The position numbers and the translations under genes were made by a program. From IMG/VR virus record IMGVR_UViG_3300034161_000008, positions 154,437 through 218,436 of that record: DNA of 64,000 bases; one strand, 5' to 3'. Each line of letters opens with the position of its first letter. The stretch's first letter is position 1. The DNA comes from a virus (lineage: Duplodnaviria > Caudoviricetes). Shown in pieces: positions 4,147-25,975 of this stretch. The notes beneath the pieces are model-generated. The model was not told the DNA's origin. It ran no database searches and saw nothing but the letters and a program-made list of their open reading frames with translations.

Positions 4147-4153
4147 CTGGGCT

Positions 4154-4177
4154 GGGTGGGTTCGCCCACCCTTTTTT
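4154..4177 (+). terminator. Intrinsic terminator
   Basis: GGGTGGG-TTCG-CCCACCC followed by T6, just after the stop at 4146. Confidence 0.85.
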
Positions 4178-4197
4178 ACTGATTTAGGAGACTACCC

Positions 4198-5223
4198 ATG
4201 TTACGTTGCGTCTGGGGCTTCGACCACGTTTTGAAGAACGTGCAGGAATCATGGTTGGCTAACAGCGGCTACTCGTTGTTTCGCAAGAACGCCGTCGCCA
4301 ACAAAGGACTCATCATCAACGACGATGGAGCCATCACTACACTACCGGGTGTTTCTACCGGGAACAACACGCAGCTTTATATCGACTGCACACCCGTAGC
4401 CGTCGCTGGTGTTACAAGTCTTGTATTCGGCCTTCGTCTCAAGACTCTTGCGCTTGGTAACAGCGGCGCAATGCTCTACTTTACTGGTGACAGTGCCGGG
4501 TCGTCATACGTCCAGCTATTGACGTTTGCTCAGCTGACCAAAGCAAACGTGGGTGATGAAGTTTACATCGAGGTTGTTGCGGATTTGGTTGCAGCTACGT
4601 TCACTGTCTTTATGGATGGGGTTCTGATTGTATCTCCTACCGCGATCGGTGCAACGCTCAATGGTCAGCTGAAAGCGGGCTTGGTGTGGGTGGCGGTCAA
4701 CCTCACTGGCTCCGGTCAGTCTGGTTTGATTTCTCTGCGCGACATGTACTTCTTGGATAACGTGGGTGGCGACGGCTTTGTTGGTCGTCAGGGTCCGCGC
4801 CGTGTTCAGAAAGTTGACTTCGATTTGGCCACCGGTACGGGCTGGACTACTACCGACGGCTCCGATCTGCTGACCACTCTCAAAGTGGCTCCAGATACTG
4901 CTAACCCAGCATTTGGTGTGGCTCCTTCCACTAAAGCACCGCTGGCCCTGTCGATGAAGTCTACCTTCTCTGATTCGTTCATCGTAGACGCCGTCTATGT
5001 ACAGCTGGCGGGTAAAGTGGACGCAGCAGGGGGCATCACAAAGACTCAGGTTAAGGATGGCGCTAACAGCACCACAGCGTCCAGCTTGAAATCTGACTTC
5101 ACCACCACCCTCAAATACGGCGTACCGGCTGGTGTCTTTGCGCGTCACCCATCGGGTGTTCGCTGGAACAGCGCCAACCTCGATACTGCTTCCTTTGTGG
5201 TATTGCCTGACCAGGTGAGCTAA
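4198..5223 (+). CDS. Family B GFDH-domain beta-rich protein (putative lectin-like fibre head)
   Basis: 341 aa; RBS AGGAG; N-terminal WGFDH, boundary motif DMYFLD..GDGFVGRQGP, C-terminal P.G.RW...LD; paralog of 7131, 8201, 9414, 11025. Confidence 0.6.
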   Translation: MLRCVWGFDHVLKNVQESWLANSGYSLFRKNAVANKGLIINDDGAITTLPGVSTGNNTQLYIDCTPVAVAGVTSLVFGLRLKTLALGNSGAMLYFTGDSAGSSYVQLLTFAQLTKANVGDEVYIEVVADLVAATFTVFMDGVLIVSPTAIGATLNGQLKAGLVWVAVNLTGSGQSGLISLRDMYFLDNVGGDGFVGRQGPRRVQKVDFDLATGTGWTTTDGSDLLTTLKVAPDTANPAFGVAPSTKAPLALSMKSTFSDSFIVDAVYVQLAGKVDAAGGITKTQVKDGANSTTASSLKSDFTTTLKYGVPAGVFARHPSGVRWNSANLDTASFVVLPDQVS

Positions 5224-5225
5224 CC

Positions 5226-6248
5226 ATGACCACTTCGCTAAGAAATGCTGTGGCTTACGCATTGACGATTCCGCCTCATTCCACTTCTGTGCGAAGTGCT
5301 GTGGCGTATGCGTTGACTCGTGACCCAGGTGTCGCACCAGCACCGTCGTATGTTTCGTCGGATCTGCGTAAGGCGCAAGATCGTTTGCTCTACGATTTGA
5401 TCGAGGACAGCAACCCTGGCTTTCAGGCAGCATTCCCTCTGAATAAAATCCAGTTTGGTGCGCCTGCTGTCAAGACCATTGATCCGGCAGATCCTTACAA
5501 GCGAGACACTACTTGTATTGTTTCTCCAAAACAGGGCAGTGGCTTAGTTGGCAGTAAGACGATCTCGTATCGTCGGATTGACGTTGGGTCGTTGTTTCGC
5601 AACATGGTTGTGCAGATCCAAACCTACTACGCAAGCACTACATTGCCCAAAACTATTTGGCAGGCAGAAGTTAACAGTCGCTTTGGGATTGTGACGTTGC
5701 CTGCTGACTGGAACAACATCTCCAGTGGTATTGCCGCCAATACAGTTTACACAGGGACCACTCTGAGTGGCCTTTGTTACAAAGGCACCCTGACGTTGCA
5801 GTGGGTTCCTGGCAAACGCCCCGCCAGTGATTTGATTCCAGATGCCAAGGTGGCTTTGGTTGGGCGGACATACCCTGCGGGTAATGACTTCACTACACCG
5901 GGCCGCAAGCCCGTTGGTGAGTGGCAGGTCTACGGTGTTGATTTCTCGCCACAGGGCGCAGCAAACCTTGAGCCTAACTCAGCAGTTACTGCATTCGCAG
6001 CTGGTTTTACTTCGGCAGGCATGACGTCACTGTTGAACTTCCTCAATGCAAACACTGGTCGAACCAACTGGTCGAACAAAGATTCTACCATTGATGGCGG
6101 GATCTGCGGGCTGACGTGGTACAAATACACCATTCCATCTGCCTCTGTGCCTGAAGCAAACTCTGCACGCTTTAACCGCGTGATGGTAATTCAGGGGGTG
6201 GCCGGTAGCTGGTTCTCCGGCAAAATCCTTCTCCACTACAACGTGTAG
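5226..6248 (+). CDS. Family A protein with tandem N-terminal motif
   Basis: 340 aa; N-terminal SLRNAVAYALT / SVRSAVAYALT; ISYRRIDV; ends LHYNV like 2340. Confidence 0.7.
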   Translation: MTTSLRNAVAYALTIPPHSTSVRSAVAYALTRDPGVAPAPSYVSSDLRKAQDRLLYDLIEDSNPGFQAAFPLNKIQFGAPAVKTIDPADPYKRDTTCIVSPKQGSGLVGSKTISYRRIDVGSLFRNMVVQIQTYYASTTLPKTIWQAEVNSRFGIVTLPADWNNISSGIAANTVYTGTTLSGLCYKGTLTLQWVPGKRPASDLIPDAKVALVGRTYPAGNDFTTPGRKPVGEWQVYGVDFSPQGAANLEPNSAVTAFAAGFTSAGMTSLLNFLNANTGRTNWSNKDSTIDGGICGLTWYKYTIPSASVPEANSARFNRVMVIQGVAGSWFSGKILLHYNV

Positions 6249-6256
6249 GAAACGCC

Positions 6257-6757
6257 ATGTCTATTTACGTAAGCAGCCAGGCTGATCTGGCAGCGATGGT
6301 CAGCGTGGCGGCGGGAGTAGTGGTTGCGGTGTCGGACCTTGTGTTCGGGACTCCACACCCAACCACGACTGCTGAGAAAGCACAGTACGGTCGCAACACC
6401 AAGATCGCTGTGAACTTTGCCCCTGCCTCTACGGTGGGTACAGGATCGCGCACGCTTTATTACGATCGTCTGGATCTTGCTCCGTTGCAATTGGCTGTTC
6501 TGTTTGGGGCTAAGGCCTCGGGTGGTGCGAACCTTGCTGCGATGATTCCGGTGATCAAGAACTATACGGGTGCTGTTGTTAGTGCAAGCGACTTGGTTGA
6601 AACATCCAGCACAGTGAACCCAGACACTGGGGGAGTTGAGTTTGTGATGACAGCTCAGACAAACAGCTTGGGCTGGCTTGGTACAGGCACGCTTAAGTTT
6701 GATCCGCCTGCGCCTATCGCCACTGCGTTTACTGACGATAAACTCCCAGGTTTCTAA
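6257..6757 (+). CDS. Family A protein, N-terminal domain only
   Basis: 166 aa; LYYDRLDL, AQTNSLGWLG, ends DKLPGF. Confidence 0.7.
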   Translation: MSIYVSSQADLAAMVSVAAGVVVAVSDLVFGTPHPTTTAEKAQYGRNTKIAVNFAPASTVGTGSRTLYYDRLDLAPLQLAVLFGAKASGGANLAAMIPVIKNYTGAVVSASDLVETSSTVNPDTGGVEFVMTAQTNSLGWLGTGTLKFDPPAPIATAFTDDKLPGF

Positions 6758-6779
6758 CCTTTTTCAAAGAGATTAAAAA

Positions 6780-7127
6780 ATGGACATCGATTGGCGCAAT
6801 TTCATGCTTAGATGTGACTTCACCGAATACGCCGATCAGTTGTCGGTTATTCCTGTAGGTCCTCTGGACGAAGGCAGTCAGCGCACTGTTGCTGCTGCCT
6901 TGGACGCAACCGGTCCTTACGATGCTCGCGGTAAGTGGTCGTTCGGCCAGATGACTTCTGAGTGGTCTCTGTACGGCGCTGAGGTGACGTACGTCGGTGA
7001 TAACCATCGCGACTACCCAACCATCAGCATCTTTAAGCACTGTCTTGCCTTGAGCTTCCCAGAGTGGTCTACCGCTCCTGTGGGTGTGTTGTACATGTGC
7101 TGGAACGACCCGGTGGTCGAGGAGTAA
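6780..7127 (+). CDS. Stand-alone C-terminal module of family A
   Basis: 115 aa; DFTEY..., WSLYGAEV, FKHCLAL, GVLYMCWNDP align with the C-terminal half of 3268..4146 (DFTTY, WSLAGATV, YKYVLAI, GTLYLHYNDP). Confidence 0.65.
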   Translation: MDIDWRNFMLRCDFTEYADQLSVIPVGPLDEGSQRTVAAALDATGPYDARGKWSFGQMTSEWSLYGAEVTYVGDNHRDYPTISIFKHCLALSFPEWSTAPVGVLYMCWNDPVVEE

Positions 7128-7130
7128 GTC

Positions 7131-8189
7131 ATGCTTCGTAAAACCTATGCCTTTGATCACTGCATCAAAGTAGATGCTCTGGCCGCCTCTGTAATCGCCG
7201 CTTACAACTGGGTTAGCAGTAGTGGCTTTAACATCACGCAAAGCGCCAATGCCAGTAATGGTTCTAACTCCGTGATCTCTTTGGACGGCTGGTTGGCTTT
7301 TGGGCTGACCAGCTCCTGGTACGGCAGTGCGACACTGGTCACTACCCTGCTCCCTGGTGCTCCGGCTTCCGCAGCCACCAAGGTTTTCTTTGGTGTTCGC
7401 ATCCGCGCATTCAGTACGTATGCAACGAACGATGAAGTGGTTTGGTTCGGGCCGTCGTCAGGAGCTCAAGCCATCCTCACCTTTGCCGATTTGGCTCCTT
7501 TGCGCGGTAGTACACCTGCCGGTACAGGTATCGATCTTTACTTGGAGTTCGCTATCGATGCGGCCACCGGCAACGTCGATATCTACAACAACGGCACGTT
7601 CTACAAAACCAAAGCTGCTCTGCTTACGGCTGGTAACAAAGCCCTGATTGCTAGCGGCTACTACACCTTTTCGCTGCGTCAGACTATCTGGGCAGGTCCA
7701 GTTACTACCAACTGGTTCCGTGACATCTACGTGATTGATGACGTTCCTGGTGATGGTTTCGTAGGTCGTCAGGGTCCTCAGCGCATGTTTCCAGTTTACT
7801 TGGATAGCGCAGTGGGTCCGTGGGTTGGTGATGATGGGGCTACCGACATCAAGGCCACGCTTAATGCTCCGTACCCGGCTTCTGCACAAGTGGTCTCTCC
7901 AACGGATAAAACGCCGTTGGTGCTGAGTTTGGCTGCCGCAATCCCTGACGGTTACAAAGTCAATGCGCTGACGCTGACGCTGGATGGCAAATCGCTGGGT
8001 GACGTGCCAACCCTCAGCAAAGTCGAAATCAAGCAAGGTGGTGTGACTGTGCCTGCTGTGAACTTGACCACGCCCCGGACATTGACGTATTCGCAACCTC
8101 TTGGGGTGTTTCCGCTAGCCCCCGATGGTGGTGTGTGGGATATCAACAAAATTGATGCCACCACAGTTACCATCACTCCCGATCAATAA
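7131..8189 (+). CDS. Family B GFDH-domain protein (putative lectin-like fibre head)
   Basis: 352 aa; YAFDH, DIYVIDD.PGDGFVGRQGP, C-terminal PDGGVWDINKID. Confidence 0.6.
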   Translation: MLRKTYAFDHCIKVDALAASVIAAYNWVSSSGFNITQSANASNGSNSVISLDGWLAFGLTSSWYGSATLVTTLLPGAPASAATKVFFGVRIRAFSTYATNDEVVWFGPSSGAQAILTFADLAPLRGSTPAGTGIDLYLEFAIDAATGNVDIYNNGTFYKTKAALLTAGNKALIASGYYTFSLRQTIWAGPVTTNWFRDIYVIDDVPGDGFVGRQGPQRMFPVYLDSAVGPWVGDDGATDIKATLNAPYPASAQVVSPTDKTPLVLSLAAAIPDGYKVNALTLTLDGKSLGDVPTLSKVEIKQGGVTVPAVNLTTPRTLTYSQPLGVFPLAPDGGVWDINKIDATTVTITPDQ

Positions 8190-8200
8190 GGGGTTAACCA

Positions 8201-9397
8201 ATGGCTATTAAGGCGCTTTATGGCTTTGACCATTACGCACAGAACGACCCCACTTGGGTTACCAAAGCCCCAGCGGGACTTACGCGATATGAGGTTGCAA
8301 GCACTGGGTACATCGATACTGTAGTTAGTGGCTGGGTGCGTACTCTGGCCGCTGGCAGCGTCAGCACATTCGACCGCATTCAGTTTGCCTTGGCTAGCTT
8401 TTTCACTGCACCTGCGGATACCATCAGCTTCGGTATGCGGATTCGTTGTGACGTTCCTGCTGGTACGACTCGTGTGATTTACACGAACTGGGGCAGTAAC
8501 GTCGACTTCACGACAGCCGATATTCCAGGCGGGGCAGTCGCTGGTAAAGTTTCATACGTCGAGTTCATCTACAAGTTCAGCACAAACACGTACACATGGA
8601 AGTGTGACGGGGTGGTTATCCGTAGTGCTGTTGCTCCTACGGGAGCAACTCGAGCGGTAGTCCTTGGTGTTCGAACAATCGCCGCCACTGCGGAGCGTTG
8701 GGCGTTTAAAGACGTCGTCGTTAGTGATGACCAAGATAGTCCAGTTGGTCCGATGGGTCCAGGCGTATTGGTTTTGCAAGATGCTGCGACGGGTACTTAT
8801 ACGTTTCAGAAATCGCCTAGCCAGCTGAGCTTGCGTCGACTGGGTGGCTACGCAATGGCCAAGCAACCTGCGCAGTTAAGCGCCCGGCAGATTCGTGGTT
8901 ATGCAATGTGCACACCATTCACTCCGCTTCCGGCTGGGTTGACTGGACAGCAAGCTGTTCTTGCGATGATCGTAGCAAAGTCTAAAACCATCCGACCGAC
9001 TACGGATTTCACCATCGACGCCTCCACCGTGTTGACTGGCGATCCATTGTTTAACAGTCGTGTCAAAGCAACCGCTACGTCGGCATCGGGACTGTTTGGG
9101 AGTTACACGTTCCGTTACAACCGTGTGGCGTTGTCGCGCATGGGGTTGACCTCGTCGTCGTTTGATCTGGGTACAGCTACAACGATCTATGGCTTGCTGC
9201 CTGCGATCAGTGCTGCGGCTGGGATTACTTTGACCACAGACGATGTCGAAGATGGCGTCATCGGTGCTGGTGACCTCACGGTTACGCTGAAAGCAAAAGC
9301 ATCCAGCTGGTGGTTCATCCCCGGCAACACACTGGTGATCGGTAAAACGCTCCCGTCTATCAATGTTCCTATCTCGTCCGATACCATCGACTGGTAG
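8201..9397 (+). CDS. Chimeric family B N-domain / tandem motif / family A domain protein
   Basis: 398 aa; YGFDH to DDQDSPVGPMGP, then SLRRLGGYAM / SARQIRGYAM, then FRYNRVAL, GITLTTDDV, KAKASSWWFIPG. Confidence 0.7.
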   Translation: MAIKALYGFDHYAQNDPTWVTKAPAGLTRYEVASTGYIDTVVSGWVRTLAAGSVSTFDRIQFALASFFTAPADTISFGMRIRCDVPAGTTRVIYTNWGSNVDFTTADIPGGAVAGKVSYVEFIYKFSTNTYTWKCDGVVIRSAVAPTGATRAVVLGVRTIAATAERWAFKDVVVSDDQDSPVGPMGPGVLVLQDAATGTYTFQKSPSQLSLRRLGGYAMAKQPAQLSARQIRGYAMCTPFTPLPAGLTGQQAVLAMIVAKSKTIRPTTDFTIDASTVLTGDPLFNSRVKATATSASGLFGSYTFRYNRVALSRMGLTSSSFDLGTATTIYGLLPAISAAAGITLTTDDVEDGVIGAGDLTVTLKAKASSWWFIPGNTLVIGKTLPSINVPISSDTIDW

Positions 9398-9413
9398 GGC
9401 GTGGAGTTAAAGA

Positions 9414-10397
9414 ATGGCTATTAAAGCAGTTATTGGTTTTGAGCACTTGCCTCAGAACGACGTCACCTGGGCTAACTTTGCAACGCATGGTCTGACGCGA
9501 GCAGCGGACAGTTCGCTCAAGAGCGTAATTGTTAATGGTTGGATCGTTGACAAGGATACTGGTGGCTCGGCGTGCCGTTACAGCATCCCCCTGACCCAGT
9601 ACATTCAAGCACCAGTTAACAAAATCTGGTTCAGCGTGCGCCTGCGTGTCAACCAGAACCCTAACGGAGCGGCAGGTATTATCTACCTGAACAATTCGTA
9701 TTTGGTGATCATCAACGAACTCCTCCCATTTGCACTGGGTACGGCGTATCACTTGGAGTTCAGTTACGATGTGACTACTGGTGTGATTGAGCGCTGGCTG
9801 AATGGCACCAAGATGTCGAACTCGACGTACAGTCCAGGCCCTGGCATTCGCGCCCTGACCTTTGGGTTGGAAGGGAAAGGCAGTGTGGCGGCCATGATCG
9901 ACTGGCGCGATATCAACGTCGTCGATGACCAAGGTGTCTCGCTGGGCTTCCCAGTTGGTCCACTGGGGCCTCGTGAAGTTGTTCCAGTGACGTTTGATAC
10001 CGTAGATGGTAGCGATTGGACCACCACCCCAAATGGCACTTCGTTGTTGACTGCGGTGAGCGAACCCGGTAGTGACCCTACTGCCAAGTACGCAACATCC
10101 AACATCAATAGCAAAGGTCCTCTGACGGCCAGCATGATCGCTACTATCCCGGCTGGCAAGAACGTCGCAGCAATCGAAATGATTGCCACCGTTCAATCCA
10201 ACGGCTCCGCTGCGGTCAACAACGCCACCAAGCTGAAGAAAGGTACAGATGAAGTGGCTGGCAGCTTTCTCAGTGCGCCATCGGGGTCGTGGAACTTCAA
10301 CGCATCATTGGGTGTTTTCCATAAAGCACCCGGTGGTCAGAACTGGACCAACGCAACAATCGACGCTACTAGCGTTGTATTGACGCCTGACGTCTAA
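9414..10397 (+). CDS. Family B GFEH-domain protein (putative lectin-like fibre head)
   Basis: 327 aa; IGFEH, DINVVDD...PVGPLGP, C-terminal PGGQNWTNATID. Confidence 0.6.
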   Translation: MAIKAVIGFEHLPQNDVTWANFATHGLTRAADSSLKSVIVNGWIVDKDTGGSACRYSIPLTQYIQAPVNKIWFSVRLRVNQNPNGAAGIIYLNNSYLVIINELLPFALGTAYHLEFSYDVTTGVIERWLNGTKMSNSTYSPGPGIRALTFGLEGKGSVAAMIDWRDINVVDDQGVSLGFPVGPLGPREVVPVTFDTVDGSDWTTTPNGTSLLTAVSEPGSDPTAKYATSNINSKGPLTASMIATIPAGKNVAAIEMIATVQSNGSAAVNNATKLKKGTDEVAGSFLSAPSGSWNFNASLGVFHKAPGGQNWTNATIDATSVVLTPDV

Positions 10398-10408
10398 GGA
10401 GTAAAAGC

Positions 10409-10999
10409 ATGCCTACTCCAGTTAAATTAGGGTCGATTCAAGGTTACGCCTTGACTTCGTCTGCTGTTGCAATGCGGGTAGGAGCTATACAGGGGTACGC
10501 CTTGGTGCGTACTCCTAACCTCCCCAACTTCGCGCTGACTCTGTCTGCTGCGTTGCTTGCTGCGTTGAATAAACAATATCTGACAAGCTTTACAGCCACT
10601 CAGATTTCGTTTGGTCCACCAGTTGCATTGGTTAATGACCCGGACTACAACACCACCAGCTTGCTGACCACCAATCGTACGTCTGGCTACACTGGCAACA
10701 AGACCATGCGTTACAATCGCGTGGACTTCTCGCTGGCGTTGCAAGGTAAAGACCCTGCACTACCCACCACCGGTATGGGGTCTACGATTTGGACTTCGTT
10801 GGCAGCTATCAATACCAAATTTGGCTGGAGTCTGACGACGGCTGATGTTGTGGACAAACCCATCACTGGGTTGACAGGTTTCAGTCTCGTTGCGACCGAT
10901 ACCAATCCGTTCATGATCCCTGGTTCGTTTGTGCGTATCGGCAATCAGATCCCAACCATGGCAACGGCTTTCCCACAGGTCGAGATCTTCGCCTTCTAA
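10409..10999 (+). CDS. Family A protein with tandem N-terminal motif
   Basis: 196 aa; VKLGSIQGYAL / MRVGAIQGYAL; MRYNRVDF, FGWSLTTADV. Confidence 0.7.
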   Translation: MPTPVKLGSIQGYALTSSAVAMRVGAIQGYALVRTPNLPNFALTLSAALLAALNKQYLTSFTATQISFGPPVALVNDPDYNTTSLLTTNRTSGYTGNKTMRYNRVDFSLALQGKDPALPTTGMGSTIWTSLAAINTKFGWSLTTADVVDKPITGLTGFSLVATDTNPFMIPGSFVRIGNQIPTMATAFPQVEIFAF

Positions 11000-11024
11000 G
11001 TGCCGCGTGCACGGAGACATCACA

Positions 11025-11996
11025 ATGAGTATGCGCCACATTTTTGGCTTTGATCACATCCCGTTGGGGGCTGTCGATCTCTCCCAGTATTTCGATACAC
11101 GTTTGGTTAACTACCTAGGTAACGGTGCCACTGCTGGCAGCACGGCATTGGCTGGTGGTTGGGTGTCCGGTGCAGGGACTTCTACCTTTCAATCCCTTGT
11201 GTTGCCAGTCTACAACGACACACCCACCCACATCGTGATTGGGTTTCGCGCTCGTTTGGCAAACGCATTCAGCGCTACGTTGTCGACCCCGATGCAAATG
11301 GTGAATGGTTCCACGTTTACCTCCGTCGGTACGCAAGCTGAATTGGATGCCAGTCAGGTTAAAACCTCGGCAGGGGATTACTTCAGTTACGATATCAACC
11401 TAGTCAGTGGCGTGATGCGCCGCTGGATTGGTAAATTGGAACTGCCGTCGATCACCTACACCCCGGCTAACTTGAAGGCTGCGATTTACCTCCTTTCAAG
11501 TCAAGCCTACAATAGCACCTACGCGGCCTATCAATTCCGCGACATCTACATCGGCGATAACTTCGACGGTATTGATGTCAACGTACTGGGTGATCGTGTG
11601 GTTAACTCGCTGCCGGTTAAATCTGCGGTCGGTGCTAACTGGGCTGCAACTGATGCAGGTCCGTTGGTCACTGCGCTGAACAAGGCATGGGTTACTGGTG
11701 CGACTGATGTTACTGCCAGTAACCTGGTGGATAATGGCGGGATTCGCGTTCAGTTCAACCAGCTCGGCGCTACCAGCGATATCGATGCCGTTCAAGTCGA
11801 AGCTGCTGGTGCTGTTGGTACGCCTACTACGGGCATCAAGATCGCTCGTGAGAACGACGCTACCGGCAAAACCTTTACGGCGGCGGCTGCTGTGAAGTGG
11901 GGTGCTCGCAGTCCTATCTACCAATTGAAATCTGATGGTTCGAAGATCACTGCTGTGGACTTCGCGTCGATGAATTTCGATATCTCTGGCGTTTAA
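11025..11996 (+). CDS. Family B GFDH-domain protein (putative lectin-like fibre head)
   Basis: Start moved to the ATG at 11025 (GGAG upstream), giving MSMRHIFGFDH; FRDIYIGD...LGDRVV boundary motif. Confidence 0.6.
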   Translation: MSMRHIFGFDHIPLGAVDLSQYFDTRLVNYLGNGATAGSTALAGGWVSGAGTSTFQSLVLPVYNDTPTHIVIGFRARLANAFSATLSTPMQMVNGSTFTSVGTQAELDASQVKTSAGDYFSYDINLVSGVMRRWIGKLELPSITYTPANLKAAIYLLSSQAYNSTYAAYQFRDIYIGDNFDGIDVNVLGDRVVNSLPVKSAVGANWAATDAGPLVTALNKAWVTGATDVTASNLVDNGGIRVQFNQLGATSDIDAVQVEAAGAVGTPTTGIKIARENDATGKTFTAAAAVKWGARSPIYQLKSDGSKITAVDFASMNFDISGV

Positions 11997-12006
11997 GGGG
12001 TAGACC

Positions 12007-12618
12007 ATGTCCCAAAAACTCAGGCAAGTCCATGCCCTAGTGTTGCGAGCACCACCACCGGGTGTCAGGTTGCGTCAAGTACATGCTCTGACTTTGGCAG
12101 GTCCTAACTCGTTGGGGATTGCTGCGGGTAAGAAAGCATCTGACGCATTGAAGGCTGCGATCATGGCGACAGCGTCGACTGCCGGTAAGGCTATCCTCGC
12201 TACTGACTTCACAATGGAAGACCCGGTAGCTATTACCGGCGTCAAGAACACCAGCGTGAAGATCAACACCGCTAACATTGATGCAGTCACTGGTTCTCAG
12301 ACGCTGCGTTACAACCGGAAGTCGTTAACGTCTGCTGCTTATCTCTTCACTACTGCTATTGAAGTGGGCACCACTGCCACCTCGGTACTGGCTGTGCTGA
12401 GTCAGATCAATGCCCTCACAGGCGTTGTGTTTGAAGCACGCGACTTTGAGGATACTGCGATTGGGGTTGGTGCTACTCAGGTCGCTCTGAAGGCAGCCAC
12501 AACCTCGTACATCTTTATCCCAGGCACCACGCTTGTTATTCAGACTCACGCAACTTTCCCATCGCTGTCCGATCTGATTACACAACCACACCTCAGTGGT
12601 TTTACTCCTGCATCCTAA
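12007..12618 (+). CDS. Family A protein with tandem N-terminal motif
   Basis: 203 aa; KLRQVHALVL / RLRQVHALTL; LRYNRKSL; ends HLSGFTPAS. Confidence 0.7.
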   Translation: MSQKLRQVHALVLRAPPPGVRLRQVHALTLAGPNSLGIAAGKKASDALKAAIMATASTAGKAILATDFTMEDPVAITGVKNTSVKINTANIDAVTGSQTLRYNRKSLTSAAYLFTTAIEVGTTATSVLAVLSQINALTGVVFEARDFEDTAIGVGATQVALKAATTSYIFIPGTTLVIQTHATFPSLSDLITQPHLSGFTPAS

Positions 12619-12667: not shown

Positions 12668-13192
12668 TTACTGAGCTGGGGTGAAGCCAGTCAGTTGGTC
12701 GTTGGCCACTGCGGTTTCCAACGGAACGTCGGTGTCAGCCAAGGTCAGAACGACCGAGTCATTGCCCACGTACAGCAGGGAGCCAGCAACGGCAGCCAGA
12801 GTGATCGAACCAGGGGTGGCTTCGTCAGCTGGCAGAACCAGATCAGAAACTTCCACGTCCGAAGCAACCAGGCCGAACAGTGCAACCAGCTGTGCTTTAA
12901 CTTCAGCAGCGGTTGCAGCAGGATCAACAACAACACCAGCAGCGGCAGCAGCGGCGGCCGAAGCAGTACCGGTCAACACGCCCAGACGGGTGTAGTCAAC
13001 GGTTTTGGTGCCGCTGAAGCCAGCGTTGGCAACAGCAGTGATCACGACTTGGGTGTTACGGCCGTTGGCGCCCGCGAAGACGCTTGGCACGCCAAAGGTA
13101 ACTTTGGCAGGGGTCAGCGCGAGACCGTTGTTGTCGGCAATGATCTGGTCGACAAGGTTTTGGACGGCGCTGTTTGCGGCATTGATAAGCAT
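12668..13192 (-). CDS. Minimal single-domain family A virion protein
   Basis: Start moved to the ATG at 13192 (GGAG 6 nt upstream); VDYTRLGV, FGLVASDV, AGSLLYVG, ends QLTGFTPAQ. Confidence 0.7.
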   Translation of the reverse strand: MLINAANSAVQNLVDQIIADNNGLALTPAKVTFGVPSVFAGANGRNTQVVITAVANAGFSGTKTVDYTRLGVLTGTASAAAAAAAGVVVDPAATAAEVKAQLVALFGLVASDVEVSDLVLPADEATPGSITLAAVAGSLLYVGNDSVVLTLADTDVPLETAVANDQLTGFTPAQ

Positions 13193-23241: not shown

Positions 23242-24564
23242 TTAGGCCTTGTAAGCGCCCAGCGATTTCTGGATGACGTTCATGGTCGAACGAATGGTCG
23301 TCAGAGCATTCGAAGCCAATGGCATTGCTGGCGACTGAGCCCAACGCGCGTAGCTGGCGTTGAAGTTCAGGACGGCGCGGTAGTACGGAACGCAATGTTT
23401 CGCGTCTTCGTCGTTGGCAGCCTTTTCGACAGCGCTGGTGGCTTTCTTCGAAGCGTTCTCGACTTTGGTCTTGGCCGCTTTCACGTCCGTCGACTTCTTG
23501 CCGCGCTGGAAGTCTTCCATGTGGTCCAGGATCTTCTCGCAGATCTTGATCGCTTCTTCCATGGAGCTGTTGCTCATGGTCTGGAAGTCGCTCGACGCAG
23601 GGGCGTCTTTATGCTTCTCACCAGTAGCGGCCAGTTCAACGCCGGAACGACGCTGACGATCCAGAGTAGCCAGGGTGCCGGTTTCAGTCGAGCTGTTGAA
23701 TTCTTTCTTCAACAGGCTGACGTTACCGAGCAGAGCCGAGCCCTGAGTAACTTTGAAGCCAGGGAAGCGCGAACCGCCCGAAGCTTTGGAACCAGGCAGA
23801 GCACCAGGGCTGTGCTTGGAAACGGCGCTTTGAACTTTCTTGGCGCTTTCTTCGGCCTTTTCAGGATCGAAGTCGCTGATGGCGTCAGCAATGGAGTTAC
23901 CCATCTTGGCCAGTTCAGCTTGGTTGTCGCCGTAGACCCAGGCGGTAGCCTTTTCCAGATCGCCCAGAGCAGATTTCAGCTCAGCTTCGTTCTTGACGAC
24001 TTTGTAGTCGACGGACAGAGCGCCGAGGCCGCTGTTCAGGGTGACTTTCTTGTCTTCGATGGCCGAACCGGATTTCGCTTCAACGCGACCTTTCAGCTCT
24101 TTCAGGCGCTTACGCAGGGCCGGAATGGTGCCGAAGATTTTGTAGAAGAAGCCTTCGATTTTCTTCCAGATGTTCTTCAGGAAGTCCTGGATGGCGCGCC
24201 AGATCTGCTGAGCAGTCTCGCGGATGCCTTCAGTGGCGATACGCTTGCCACGATACGATTCCATTGCTGGAACCAGATCAGCAGGCTCAACGTCGGAACC
24301 GGCAACAGCCATGTCACCAGCGTTTTCGATCAGAGCGATTTCAGCCGGGGTGGCTTCTTCGATGCCGTCAGCGATGACAGCGAGGTCTTCGAGAGCGTCG
24401 GAGACTTCGATGATGCGCTCAGCTTCGCCCAGGTCGGTGTCGACGCTGGCAGAATCCTGCGCAGCTTCGTCGAGCAGGATCTGCTCTTCTTCCATGGAGA
24501 TGTTTTCGCCGAAGGCTTGTGCTTCGAGGGCCATAGATTGGCCGTGTTCCAGAAATTTACGCAT
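23242..24564 (-). CDS. phiKZ-like internal head protein
   Basis: 440 aa; acidic propeptide with ALE/AME/ATE protease sites followed by the amphipathic IWRAIQDFLKNIWKKIEGFF helix; strongly biased codons. Confidence 0.75.
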   Translation of the reverse strand: MRKFLEHGQSMALEAQAFGENISMEEEQILLDEAAQDSASVDTDLGEAERIIEVSDALEDLAVIADGIEEATPAEIALIENAGDMAVAGSDVEPADLVPAMESYRGKRIATEGIRETAQQIWRAIQDFLKNIWKKIEGFFYKIFGTIPALRKRLKELKGRVEAKSGSAIEDKKVTLNSGLGALSVDYKVVKNEAELKSALGDLEKATAWVYGDNQAELAKMGNSIADAISDFDPEKAEESAKKVQSAVSKHSPGALPGSKASGGSRFPGFKVTQGSALLGNVSLLKKEFNSSTETGTLATLDRQRRSGVELAATGEKHKDAPASSDFQTMSNSSMEEAIKICEKILDHMEDFQRGKKSTDVKAAKTKVENASKKATSAVEKAANDEDAKHCVPYYRAVLNFNASYARWAQSPAMPLASNALTTIRSTMNVIQKSLGAYKA

Positions 24565-24603
24565 GTCGGTGTTACCCTTACAAATAGGGGAAGAGAGTGG
24601 TGA

Positions 24604-24639
24604 AATCAGAACGCCTCATATAAATGGGGCGCTCTGATT
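24604..24639 (-). promoter_or_regulatory. Hairpin with late-promoter TATG at its apex
   Basis: AATCAGAACGCC-TCATATAAATGG-GGCGCTCTGATT; minus strand reads TTTATATGAGG, ~50 nt upstream of 24564. Confidence 0.55.
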
Positions 24640-24655
24640 GCGTAAGGGCGTGACC

Positions 24656-25975
24656 TTACTTGCTGCCGTACTGCTTCAGCGACAGCTCAACGTAGTCGAG
24701 CAGTGCTTTACCGGTGTTCAGAGCGTAAGCGCTGAAGCCGGTGGCCGGTTGGTCGATCAACTTCGGAACGGACATGCCCAGTTTGGCCAGAGCCTTACCG
24801 TTGGTGCGCGCGCCTTTGTCTTCGTCCGACGCGTTGTCGGCGTCTTTACCAGCTTTCTCGGCAGCCTTGACAATCTTGTCTTTGGTGGCCGACAGCTTTT
24901 CCAGGTTGCGCTTGTAGCTCTGCACTTCCTGGGCCAGGGACTCAACAGCACCGGCAACTTTCTCGGCTTCCGAAGGAGCCAGAGTGGTCAGGGTGTTCTT
25001 GGTCGGTTCCTTGGCTTTCGGGTTGAACTTGCCGATGTTGTAGCCCGAACGGGAAACAGCATCAACAGCAGCAGCGCCTTTCAGGCCGCCGTCAGCAGGG
25101 AAGCGAGCGATGATCGCTTGGCCGCCTGGCAGTTCGTGGGAGATCATGAAGACCATGCCGTTGCCAGCGTCACCGTGATCAGCGCCACCTTTGGTCAGAG
25201 CCAGGGTGCCGTCGGTACGAGCAGGCAGGCTGAAGCTGTCCAGCTTGGACGGATCGCCCAGCAGTTCAACGATAGCGTCGCCGACTTCGCCGTTCCAGGT
25301 GGTAACGCCACCGAAGATACCGTTGGCCAGCTTGTTCAGCTCTTGGGCTTGGGTGCCGATGGAAGCAGGAACAGCGCCGCTGATTTCCAGGGCTTTAACC
25401 AGACGATCGGATTCGAAGGTCTTTTCTTTCGGAGTGCCGGTAGTGGCACCAGCGCGCTCGACCAGGGCTTTCGCACGGGCTTCGAGTTTGTTGGCAGCGC
25501 CGAACACTTTGACGAAGCGCTCTTTGACCCAGGCGATGGCGTCTTTGATTGCTTTGACGATGCGTTCCCAGATCTTCTTGATCGAGTCCTTGATGTCTTC
25601 CAGAGCCACGGTGGTGGACTTCTGGCGAGTGCTGGTGCCGCCGAAGGATTCCAGGGCAGGAACCGATTGACGCTTCAGGCCAACACGGCCATACAGGGAC
25701 TTGACGTGCAGGTCGAGGATGTGGGCACCGTGGGTGTCCAGACCGCCAGCCTGTACAGCGCTTTCCAGAGCCAGTACGGCCTGTTCCAGAGCTTCGACGG
25801 TTTCAACAGCGTCGTCGGTTGCGGCTTCTTCGACATCAGCTTCTTCGGCTTCGTCGTTTACTTCCAGCAAGTCGGTCTCGAGGGACTCGGGCGCGTCACC
25901 GAGTTCCAGATCGCCGTCTTGTGGTTCCAGGTTTTCGTTTTCAAGGGCCATGAGGCCGGTACGGTTGCGACGCAT
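24656..25975 (-). CDS. phiKZ-like internal head protein (paralog)
   Basis: 439 aa; ALE, SLE, ALE, ALE, ALE, ALE sites, then IKKIWERIVKAIKDAIAWVKERF. Confidence 0.75.
   Translation of the reverse strand: MRRNRTGLMALENENLEPQDGDLELGDAPESLETDLLEVNDEAEEADVEEAATDDAVETVEALEQAVLALESAVQAGGLDTHGAHILDLHVKSLYGRVGLKRQSVPALESFGGTSTRQKSTTVALEDIKDSIKKIWERIVKAIKDAIAWVKERFVKVFGAANKLEARAKALVERAGATTGTPKEKTFESDRLVKALEISGAVPASIGTQAQELNKLANGIFGGVTTWNGEVGDAIVELLGDPSKLDSFSLPARTDGTLALTKGGADHGDAGNGMVFMISHELPGGQAIIARFPADGGLKGAAAVDAVSRSGYNIGKFNPKAKEPTKNTLTTLAPSEAEKVAGAVESLAQEVQSYKRNLEKLSATKDKIVKAAEKAGKDADNASDEDKGARTNGKALAKLGMSVPKLIDQPATGFSAYALNTGKALLDYVELSLKQYGSK

Follow-up and report, generated by a model that had tools for sequence, protein, structure and literature searches.

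Why would each gene of one family in a phage gene array be followed by a gene that encodes a short peptide motif in two copies? The question is raised by positions 4198 to 12618 of the window analysed here, a stretch of 64,000 nucleotides (nt) forming the last 64 kb (positions 154,437 to 218,436) of the 218,436-bp IMG/VR virus record IMGVR_UViG_3300034161_000008, which is listed with direct terminal repeats. On plus-strand translation, the array consists of two protein families, A and B. The A proteins belong to Pfam DUF7941 (PF25613) and phrog_1037 'virion structural protein', and have an N-terminal domain (NTD) of about 165 amino acids (aa) and an optional C-terminal domain (CTD) of about 110 aa. 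The B genes start at 4198, 7131, 9414 and 11025, and each stands 2-11 nt ahead of the next A gene. An earlier annotation made from the letters alone (the sequence-only reading) had claimed that all four are followed by a protein with a duplicated motif, that this motif docks on the B C-domain by beta-strand addition, and that each pair is a plug-in cassette. Our analysis suggests that the motif copies are probably non-covalent pegs, which hang lectin-like B heads on DUF7941 adaptors; the binding itself is modelled.

Translation places the motif pairs as the sequence-only reading had stated. The motif spans 11 residues with the consensus hydrophobic-R-x-hydrophobic-x-(G/A)-(Y/L/F)-x-(L/M/W), and in all four window adaptors its two copies follow each other with a period of exactly 17 residues. 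The pairs occupy aa 4-14 and 21-31 of 5226 (5235..5318, plus strand like those that follow; 22.1 and 20.8 bits), aa 210-220 and 227-237 of 8201 (8828..8911, GYAM type; 20.6 and 22.9 bits), aa 6-16 and 23-33 of 10409 (10424..10507, IQGYAL type; 23.3 and 19.0 bits), and aa 4-14 and 21-31 of 12007 (12016..12099; 16.5 and 16.8 bits). They lie ahead of the DUF7941 domain in 5226, 10409 and 12007; in 8201 a B-type N-domain precedes the pair and the DUF7941 domain follows it. A position-specific scoring matrix made from the motifs and run on all open reading frames of at least 80 aa in the 218-kb genome (127,048 positions) found only these 8 sites at or above 13 bits (16.5-23.3), and the next best site scored 12.4. 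The scan is partly circular, with the window's own copies among the seeds; the motif pattern was reproduced in the non-seed loci L012-L020 described below. The motif is absent from the eight A proteins that have an N-domain and no preceding B gene (704, 1561, 2340, 3268, 6257, 12668 on the minus strand, and two upstream of the window), which gives 4/4 A proteins after B against 0/8 others in the window array. The absence claimed for such proteins therefore holds, but not all of them are complete as had been said: 6257 is only the N-domain half of a gene whose C-half lies at 6780-7127, and 12668 has an N-domain only.

The repeat might instead be a feature of the nucleic acid (translational coupling or RNA structure), a recent slippage duplication or a product of chance, with no function at the protein level. 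Its position at the extreme 5′ end of the post-B gene in three of the four window genes would suit such an origin, which we nevertheless regard as hardly credible. The amino acids are conserved with many synonymous differences between the tandem copies (in 5226, 6/9 identical residues use different codons), and Tandem Repeats Finder detected no DNA tandem repeat in the motif regions. Because of this synonymous divergence and the lack of a DNA repeat, the duplication is old, and selection on the peptide keeps it at the protein level. The motif of 8201 lies inside the protein (aa 210-237), no site of like strength was found by the matrix in the rest of the genome, and the pattern and its 17-residue period persist where the B proteins are less than 30 % identical.

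We compared 14 arrays, namely the window, four distinct IMG/VR loci (L007, of which L008 is a near copy, and L009-L011), contigs with B9414 homologs of 48-77 % identity (L012-L016) and contigs with distant B-family members (L017-L020). The periodic N-terminal array was found in 32 of the 32 proteins with a DUF7941 NTD encoded directly after a B gene and in 0 of the 120 other NTD proteins, its copies starting at positions 4, 21, 38, 55 and onward. In L020, the most distant locus, the scores drop to 10-12.6 bits, yet the 17-residue period and the residue pattern are plain; both persist in relatives with B proteins below 30 % identity. Co-occurrence is thus general, as it holds in 13 further arrays and in Burkholderia phage FLC9, but the strict one-to-one pairing of the sequence-only reading does not: the rule works by blocks, in which one to six B genes precede one adaptor with one to eight motif copies.

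Motif copy number follows B gene number. One B gene goes with two copies in the window (four times), L007, L012, L014, L016 and L017; two B genes go with four copies in L007, L010, L013-L016 and L020 (three times) and with three in L009, L011 and L014. We also observed three B genes with three copies (L018), one B gene with three copies (L019) and, for B genes of clade B-IV, one gene with one copy (L007, L009-L011 and L015). The largest block is that of FLC9, where six B genes (gp316-gp311) are accompanied by eight copies with a perfect 17-residue period in one protein, gp310. Phage SPN3US has DUF7941 arrays, and neither a B gene nor the motif was found in it.

Several seeming exceptions were set aside. 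In L009 a B gene seemed to be missing because this gene, L009_11602, fell below the first threshold of the hidden Markov model (HMM); it is present on manual translation. Copies missed at 13 bits (L015_12748, the second copies in L012 and the first copy of L013_9300) are true weaker copies with the 17-residue spacing. L016_11709 was considered as a counter-example, as it has an N-terminal extension and no upstream B gene. Its motif has decayed (no site of 6 bits or more) and we read it as a relic.

Gains and losses affect the two elements together. For the ortholog of 5226, the B gene and the motif are both absent in L009-L013 and L015 and both present in the window, L007, L014 and L016. In the tree of A5226 orthologs, the window, which has both, is sister to L012, which has neither (support 99/99), and well-supported branches force at least two independent changes. 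Between these two, blastn homology ends near 4159 and resumes at 5358, leaving a 1.2-kb indel (4160..5357, plus strand) whose content is limited to the ribosome-binding site, B4198 and 44 codons at the start of 5226, i.e. the motif pair and a Pro-rich linker. L013 has neither B11025 nor the motif pair that belongs to the 12007-type domain, and its 12007-type NTD is fused behind the 10409-type adaptor; in L016 the B-IV gene is absent and the matching motif decayed. Because of this co-loss, the 1.2-kb indel and the L013 and L016 cases, the B gene and the peg-coding 5′ end of the A gene behave as a single evolutionary unit. The plug-in cassette proposed earlier is consistent with this, with 'B + motif-coding 5′ end' as the single indel unit.

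Two details of these regions can be added. The window has a GC-rich, terminator-like hairpin with a T-run at 4147-4197, after A3268 and just before the B4198 cassette; it is kept in L012 and immediately precedes the point at which the cassette is inserted. The fused protein at L013:10993-12081 consists of a motif pair followed by tandem DUF7941 N-domains of the 10409 and 12007 types; in relatives, these two domains are separated by a B gene and a further motif pair.

A different rearrangement is seen in 8201 (8201..9397, plus strand, 398 aa), a chimera of a B-type N-domain, a motif pair and a DUF7941 NTD. Its aa 1-199 are 32 % identical to B-III members and its aa 200-398 are 68 % identical to aa 29-227 of the four-motif adaptor L013_A9300; in agreement, the B HMM matches aa 1-209 and the HMM of the A N-domain (AN) aa 243-396. 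The join lies just after the expected motif 2 of a four-motif adaptor, and the pair present in 8201 aligns with motifs 3 and 4. On this alignment, the join is a swap of the B C-domain and the first two pegs for a peptide bond. If the C-domain and peg are a coupling device and the N-domain is the payload, a fusion of this type would be predicted. It represents one event, also found in L012.

The four B genes encode paralogs of 323-352 aa with mutual identities of 23-31 %, all on the plus strand. B4198 (4198..5223, 341 aa, clade B-I, a two-domain lectin-like head by paralogy) has an ortholog, L007_8378, that also precedes a two-motif A protein. B7131 (7131..8189, 352 aa) groups loosely with clade B-II, B9414 (9414..10397, 327 aa) belongs to clade B-III, and B11025 (11025..11996, 323 aa) is a long-branch paralog whose orthologs in L012 and L017 also precede adaptors of the LRQxHAL type. 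B proteins match phrog_2448 weakly and no Pfam lectin family. All four align over their full length and share the family signature, consisting of an N-terminal GF(D/E)H strand, an RDxYxxD(D/N) segment, a GP-rich interdomain linker and a C-domain ending in W...TPD. The family counts 1320 cluster representatives (E ≤0.001). Neither the region (megablast) nor B4198 (tblastn) had a match among GenBank phages, and tblastn with FLC9 gp311 recovered only FLC9 itself. At tblastn sensitivity, the B family is essentially absent from the cultured phages of the GenBank phage collection, FLC9 apart.

AlphaFold2 predicts for B9414, which has 40 close homologs, two beta-sandwich domains (predicted local distance difference test, pLDDT, 91.4; predicted template modelling (TM) score 0.88). 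Foldseek returned 154 matches in the PDB at E ≤0.001, mostly legume lectins, alginate lyases of polysaccharide lyase family 7 (PL7), carbohydrate-binding modules of family 22 (CBM22, in tandem) and the receptor-binding domain of mycobacteriophage TM4 gp23, the last with probability 1.0. The TM-scores of these matches are only 0.3-0.45 and the identities 8-16 %. B models as a two-domain fold, probably of the concanavalin A (ConA)-like lectin or carbohydrate-binding-module type, and carbohydrate binding is putative.

In FLC9 (L006), the proteins gp316, gp315, gp314, gp310, gp308 and gp307 carry B-type modules or DUF7941 NTDs fused to at least one LamG/ConA-like domain. These domains share the ending L-D-E-(V/L)-R-(I/V)-S...Y...F-T-P-P, and in gp314 they alternate with short DUF7941-like segments. 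The annotated starts of gp311-gp313 seem to clip the conserved N-terminal strand.

What the adaptors are is indicated by recent work. DUF7941 was described in a preprint on phage Goslar from April 2026 as chimallivirus-specific, with an NTD, a disordered linker and a CTD, and as forming head-to-tail filaments in vitro (bioRxiv 10.64898/2026.04.21.720040). The resulting 'fibre cloud', which in Goslar involves gp22/gp23, is probably anchored on the peripheral baseplate via phiKZ gp126/gp127 (bioRxiv 10.64898/2026.04.21.720040). The window proteins score well above the DUF7941 cut-off of 27 bits (5226 90.6; 8201 55.4; 10409 53.0; 12007 51.6; 3268 165.4; 6257 64.0). Adaptor 5226 (5226..6248, plus strand, 340 aa), made of the motif pair, NTD, linker and CTD, matches Pfam DUF7941 over aa 46-339 (E 1.6e-25). 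Modelled alone by AlphaFold2, it has a confident NTD (45-205) and CTD (225-340) joined by a linker (206-221) with pLDDT below 50, the same layout as in Goslar gp22/gp23; its peg region (aa 1-40) is disordered, with pLDDT below 45 overall and 33-43 over the motif region. The sole PDB match of 5226 in Foldseek at E <0.001 (E 7.5e-5) is 9xqd_0, a 150-aa chain from the outer peripheral baseplate of phiKZ. This match, whose TM-score normalised to the target is 0.66, is consistent with the expected likeness to the phiKZ gp127 NTD. HMM and phmmer searches of A and B proteins against PDB sequences gave no significant match. The adaptors 10409 (10409..10999, 196 aa) and 12007 (12007..12618, 203 aa), both on the plus strand, are identified by translation, Pfam and HMM as a motif pair followed by the DUF7941 NTD only.

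We modelled one cognate B-adaptor pair, B9414 (alignment of 52 rows) with aa 1-45 of 10409 (11 rows). Three runs gave interaction prediction scores from aligned errors (ipSAE) of 0.85, 0.83 and 0.84; none of three controls scored above 0.00, and the score fell to 0.00 when B was replaced. Of the multimer predictions proposed by the sequence-only reading, this one cognate pair was covered and passed (0.84 against 0.00 in the controls). The ipSAE mark is reached by 58/80 solved complexes and 2/110 mismatched pairs, counts that are approximate here owing to the custom alignments. The three runs share at least 94 % of contacts, and the partner pLDDT is at least 62. On the partner side the confident interface covers aa 19-36 of 10409, which is the second motif copy. 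On B9414 it comprises residues 3-11 (N-terminal strand), 168 (RD segment), 184-194 (interdomain linker), 249-268, W311, I316 and 321-325, and these are the signature segments of the B family; the conservation enrichment of the interface is weak (Mann-Whitney p = 0.014; top-40 overlap p = 0.11). The modelled peg pairs antiparallel with the C-domain strand 250-260, within B9414 249-268. Docking by beta-strand addition is therefore supported by the model together with co-occurrence, co-loss, dose and disorder, but the proposed site has to be revised: in the model the peg is received not by the C-domain alone but by a cleft, in which C-domain strand 250-260 lies with the N-terminal strand 3-11, the RD segment and the interdomain linker. 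As the first motif copy was not placed, the model suggests one B protein per peg; two pegs on the same B protein would be the alternative.

The array could also bind a partner other than B, such as the NTD groove of another DUF7941 protein, where it would imitate the linker peptide of the family, or a baseplate protein, or it could stack on itself into an oligomerising beta-sheet, while B merely travels along. Some observations are compatible with this. DUF7941 has already been proposed to dock a disordered peptide on the NTD of its neighbour, the hydrophobic-x-G-F tail of NTD-only proteins faintly resembles the motif core x-G-Y-A-L, the peg-to-B ratios are not constant, and the strict 17-residue period could reflect a self-assembling sheet. 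Binding to a non-B partner would, however, leave unexplained why copy number follows B number and why B and motif are lost together; moreover, the model puts the motif on B with high confidence and gives 0.00 on B replacement. As for self-stacking, the single-copy arrays of B-IV adaptors cannot form a sheet alone. On balance we consider a non-B partner or self-stacking unlikely.

Another option is that B acts as a dedicated assembly chaperone outside the virion, which transiently binds the disordered N-terminus of the next protein in the manner of tail-fibre assembly proteins. The tight gene pairing with gaps of 2-11 nt and the disordered nature of the partner peptide would be expected of a chaperone, and a transient complex would agree with the binding model just as well. 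The type of fold predicted for B, that of lectins or carbohydrate-binding modules, argues against it, and so do its permanent connections: in FLC9, B modules are fused to LamG-like domains and DUF7941-like segments in proteins of 560-1156 aa, and in 8201 the B N-domain is fused to the adaptor. The family is also large and fast-diversifying like receptor binders (1320 representatives), and chaperones rarely need one to three sites per client. We therefore find a chaperone role improbable.

Several points weigh against lectin heads pegged on adaptors as well. Adjoining genes are co-inherited, so that co-occurrence among orthologs is not independent evidence, and the comparisons reduce to about three to four independent gain or loss events. 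The number of pegs per B gene varies from 1 to 3. The complex score expresses the confidence of the model itself, obtained from shallow alignments, and binding is a prediction; in addition, only the second motif copy was docked and the first was left unplaced. The location of DUF7941 proteins in the virion is disputed, as the SPN3US 'paralog family B', which equals DUF7941, was detected in a tailless mutant and its members were called head proteins (PMC5694885). What our data show is the motif pattern with its distribution, the joint loss of B and motif, the predicted folds and the score of the model. That B physically binds the pegs, in a ratio of one to one, that it belongs to the virion and that it takes part in recognising the host is what we infer from them.

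The arrangement that we favour, with B heads pegged on adaptors, could work as follows. The A genes encode chimallivirus DUF7941 proteins, which have been proposed to chain head-to-tail into filaments of the peripheral baseplate; the products of the B genes are separate lectin-like proteins of two domains that lack an anchor. In the A gene that comes first behind a B gene or B block, the N-terminus carries an array, predicted to be disordered, of 11-residue strand motifs with a 17-residue period. Each peg would take up a beta-strand conformation in the cleft that separates the two B domains, antiparallel to C-domain strand 250-260, and its G-Y-A-L end would pack on W311, the RD segment, the GP-rich linker between the domains and the GF(D/E)H strand at the N-terminus. 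The DUF7941 NTD of the adaptor and its C-terminal hydrophobic-x-G-F tail would integrate into the filament or baseplate like other family members. An adaptor with one to eight pegs could thus display one to several lectin heads, including different heads in several copies. The 'B + peg-coding 5′ end' moves as a unit, by which heads could be added, lost or covalently fused as in 8201.

Whether the pegs also carry an address is more doubtful. Motif types track B clades across genomes; this is compatible with the cassette-specific codes that the sequence-only reading thought possible, and linked inheritance accounts for it equally well. It is possible, and we put it forward tentatively, that pegs and B clefts form orthogonal sequence-coded pairs, such that the order and number of pegs programme which heads, and how many, are mounted on each fibre subunit. 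The putative code would pair AYAL with B-I, R/NGY(A/V)M with B-II, IQGYAL with B-III, LRSLDxFAM with B-IV and LRQVHAL with B11025. If this is true, the phages would possess a natural scaffold, addressed by peptides and open to evolution, on which host recognition becomes multivalent and which has spread as 'B + peg' cassettes inserted.

With regard to known systems, the A proteins resemble the DUF7941 fibre cloud in that they are members of the family, occur in tandem paralog arrays and have an NTD matching a phiKZ outer-baseplate chain; some family members there also carry sugar-binding modules. The differences are that binding domains of the fibre cloud are fused in cis behind the NTD, whereas the heads here are separate genes, and that the adaptor here has an N-terminal peg array before the NTD. 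In the text of the Goslar preprint that was searched, there is no mention of the B family or the peg motif, and only cis-fused binding domains are discussed.

Branched receptor-binding systems are known from several phages, among them the K1-5/SP6 gp37 adaptors, G7C gp66-gp63.1 and the CBA120 tailspikes. In the anchor-branch systems of Klebsiella phages KP32/K11/KP34, a conserved N-terminal peptide of one receptor-binding protein docks in a branching domain of another (PMC6872550, PMC13352976). Shared with the window are a short conserved N-terminal peptide that joins host-recognition proteins non-covalently, adjoining genes and a modular exchange of specificity. There, however, the peptide sits on the secondary binder, usually as a single copy, and enters a T4gp10-like branching domain of the primary protein in trimeric spikes. 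Here the docking peptide is not on the recruited protein: pegs are on the DUF7941 scaffold, in 1-8 tandem repeats with a 17-residue period, and in the model the lectin head receives the peg. No T4gp10-like or other known branching domain turned up when all A and B proteins were scanned against Pfam and PHROGs.

Two more distant analogies may be considered. Cellulosome scaffoldins bind dockerin-tagged enzymes through tandem cohesins. The functional analogy is that one scaffold with tandem docking sites collects several separately encoded carbohydrate-active modules, there by type-specific pairs. The two are unrelated in sequence and fold, with no cohesin or dockerin matches in Pfam, and instead of folded domains the docking sites here are strands of 11 residues. 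Donor-strand complementation, or beta-strand augmentation, in chaperone-usher pili is a mechanistic analogy, as a disordered N-terminal strand is modelled here to pair with the edge strand of the beta-sandwich of another protein. In contrast to pili, B is modelled confidently in the absence of the strand (pLDDT 91) with no obvious gap in its fold, and there is no chaperone or usher.

In a full-text search of the literature on DUF7941, chimallivirus fibres and adaptors, FLC9 and the SPN3US paralogs, we found no description of the B family or the peg array. Separate lectin heads pegged on repeated adaptor peptides are thus an arrangement that we could not find described, and the nearest known principle is that of the anchor-branch systems. 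Host recognition by nucleus-forming giant phages is poorly understood, and the idea of DUF7941 filaments is months old and covers cis-fused binding domains only. If true, a peg-and-head system would explain how receptor-binding modules can be added, removed and multiplied without re-engineering the fibre subunit, and would assign a function to the B family, which is large (1320 cluster representatives) and unannotated. It would also provide a tiny natural docking tag of 11-17 residues, possibly with orthogonal variants, of interest where modules are to be displayed on phage particles.

The remaining A genes of the array are motif-free. The split A gene at 6257..7127 (plus strand), which has no preceding B gene, encodes an N-domain (6257-6757) and a C-domain (6780-7127), recognised by the HMMs AN and AC. 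Because the split is kept in every relative examined and two B genes sit between the halves in L018, it is probably a functional two-gene arrangement and not a pseudogene. The array ends with an NTD-only DUF7941 gene on the minus strand at 12668..13192, for which a 174-aa gene call in L012 and L013 indicates the likely start. A short conserved tail, hydrophobic-x-G-F or W, terminates the NTD-only proteins (10409, 12007, 6257 and 12668 on the minus strand). In the window such tails were noted at 6757, 9397, 10999, 12618 and 12668(-), and the long paralogs of SPN3US (L005) terminate in N-G-E-L-(D/N)-G-F. Docking of a linker peptide on the NTD of the next subunit is predicted in the Goslar preprint, and this tail may be that peptide.

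The genome as a whole contains 15 DUF7941 matches above the Pfam cut-off and two adjacent paralogs of the phiKZ inner-body family PF12699 on the minus strand (window 23272-25861, or 177708-180297 of the whole record, G000; E 5e-57 and 2e-36). By these DUF7941 and PF12699 genes, the record is assigned to a phiKZ-like (chimallivirus-type) jumbo phage, represented by metagenome data only. The closest cultured relative for the array is Burkholderia phage FLC9, in which the counterpart of A3268 is 48 % identical. Further DUF7941 paralogs lie outside the main array (G000 86056-86634 and 90181-93603) and are motif-free with no adjoining B gene. Downstream of the fibre array in relatives, precomputed Pfam annotation lists an Acb2/Tad1-hairpin protein (L015:16273-17046) and a Macro-domain protein (L016:15714-16202), both of which are possible counter-defence genes adjoining the array.

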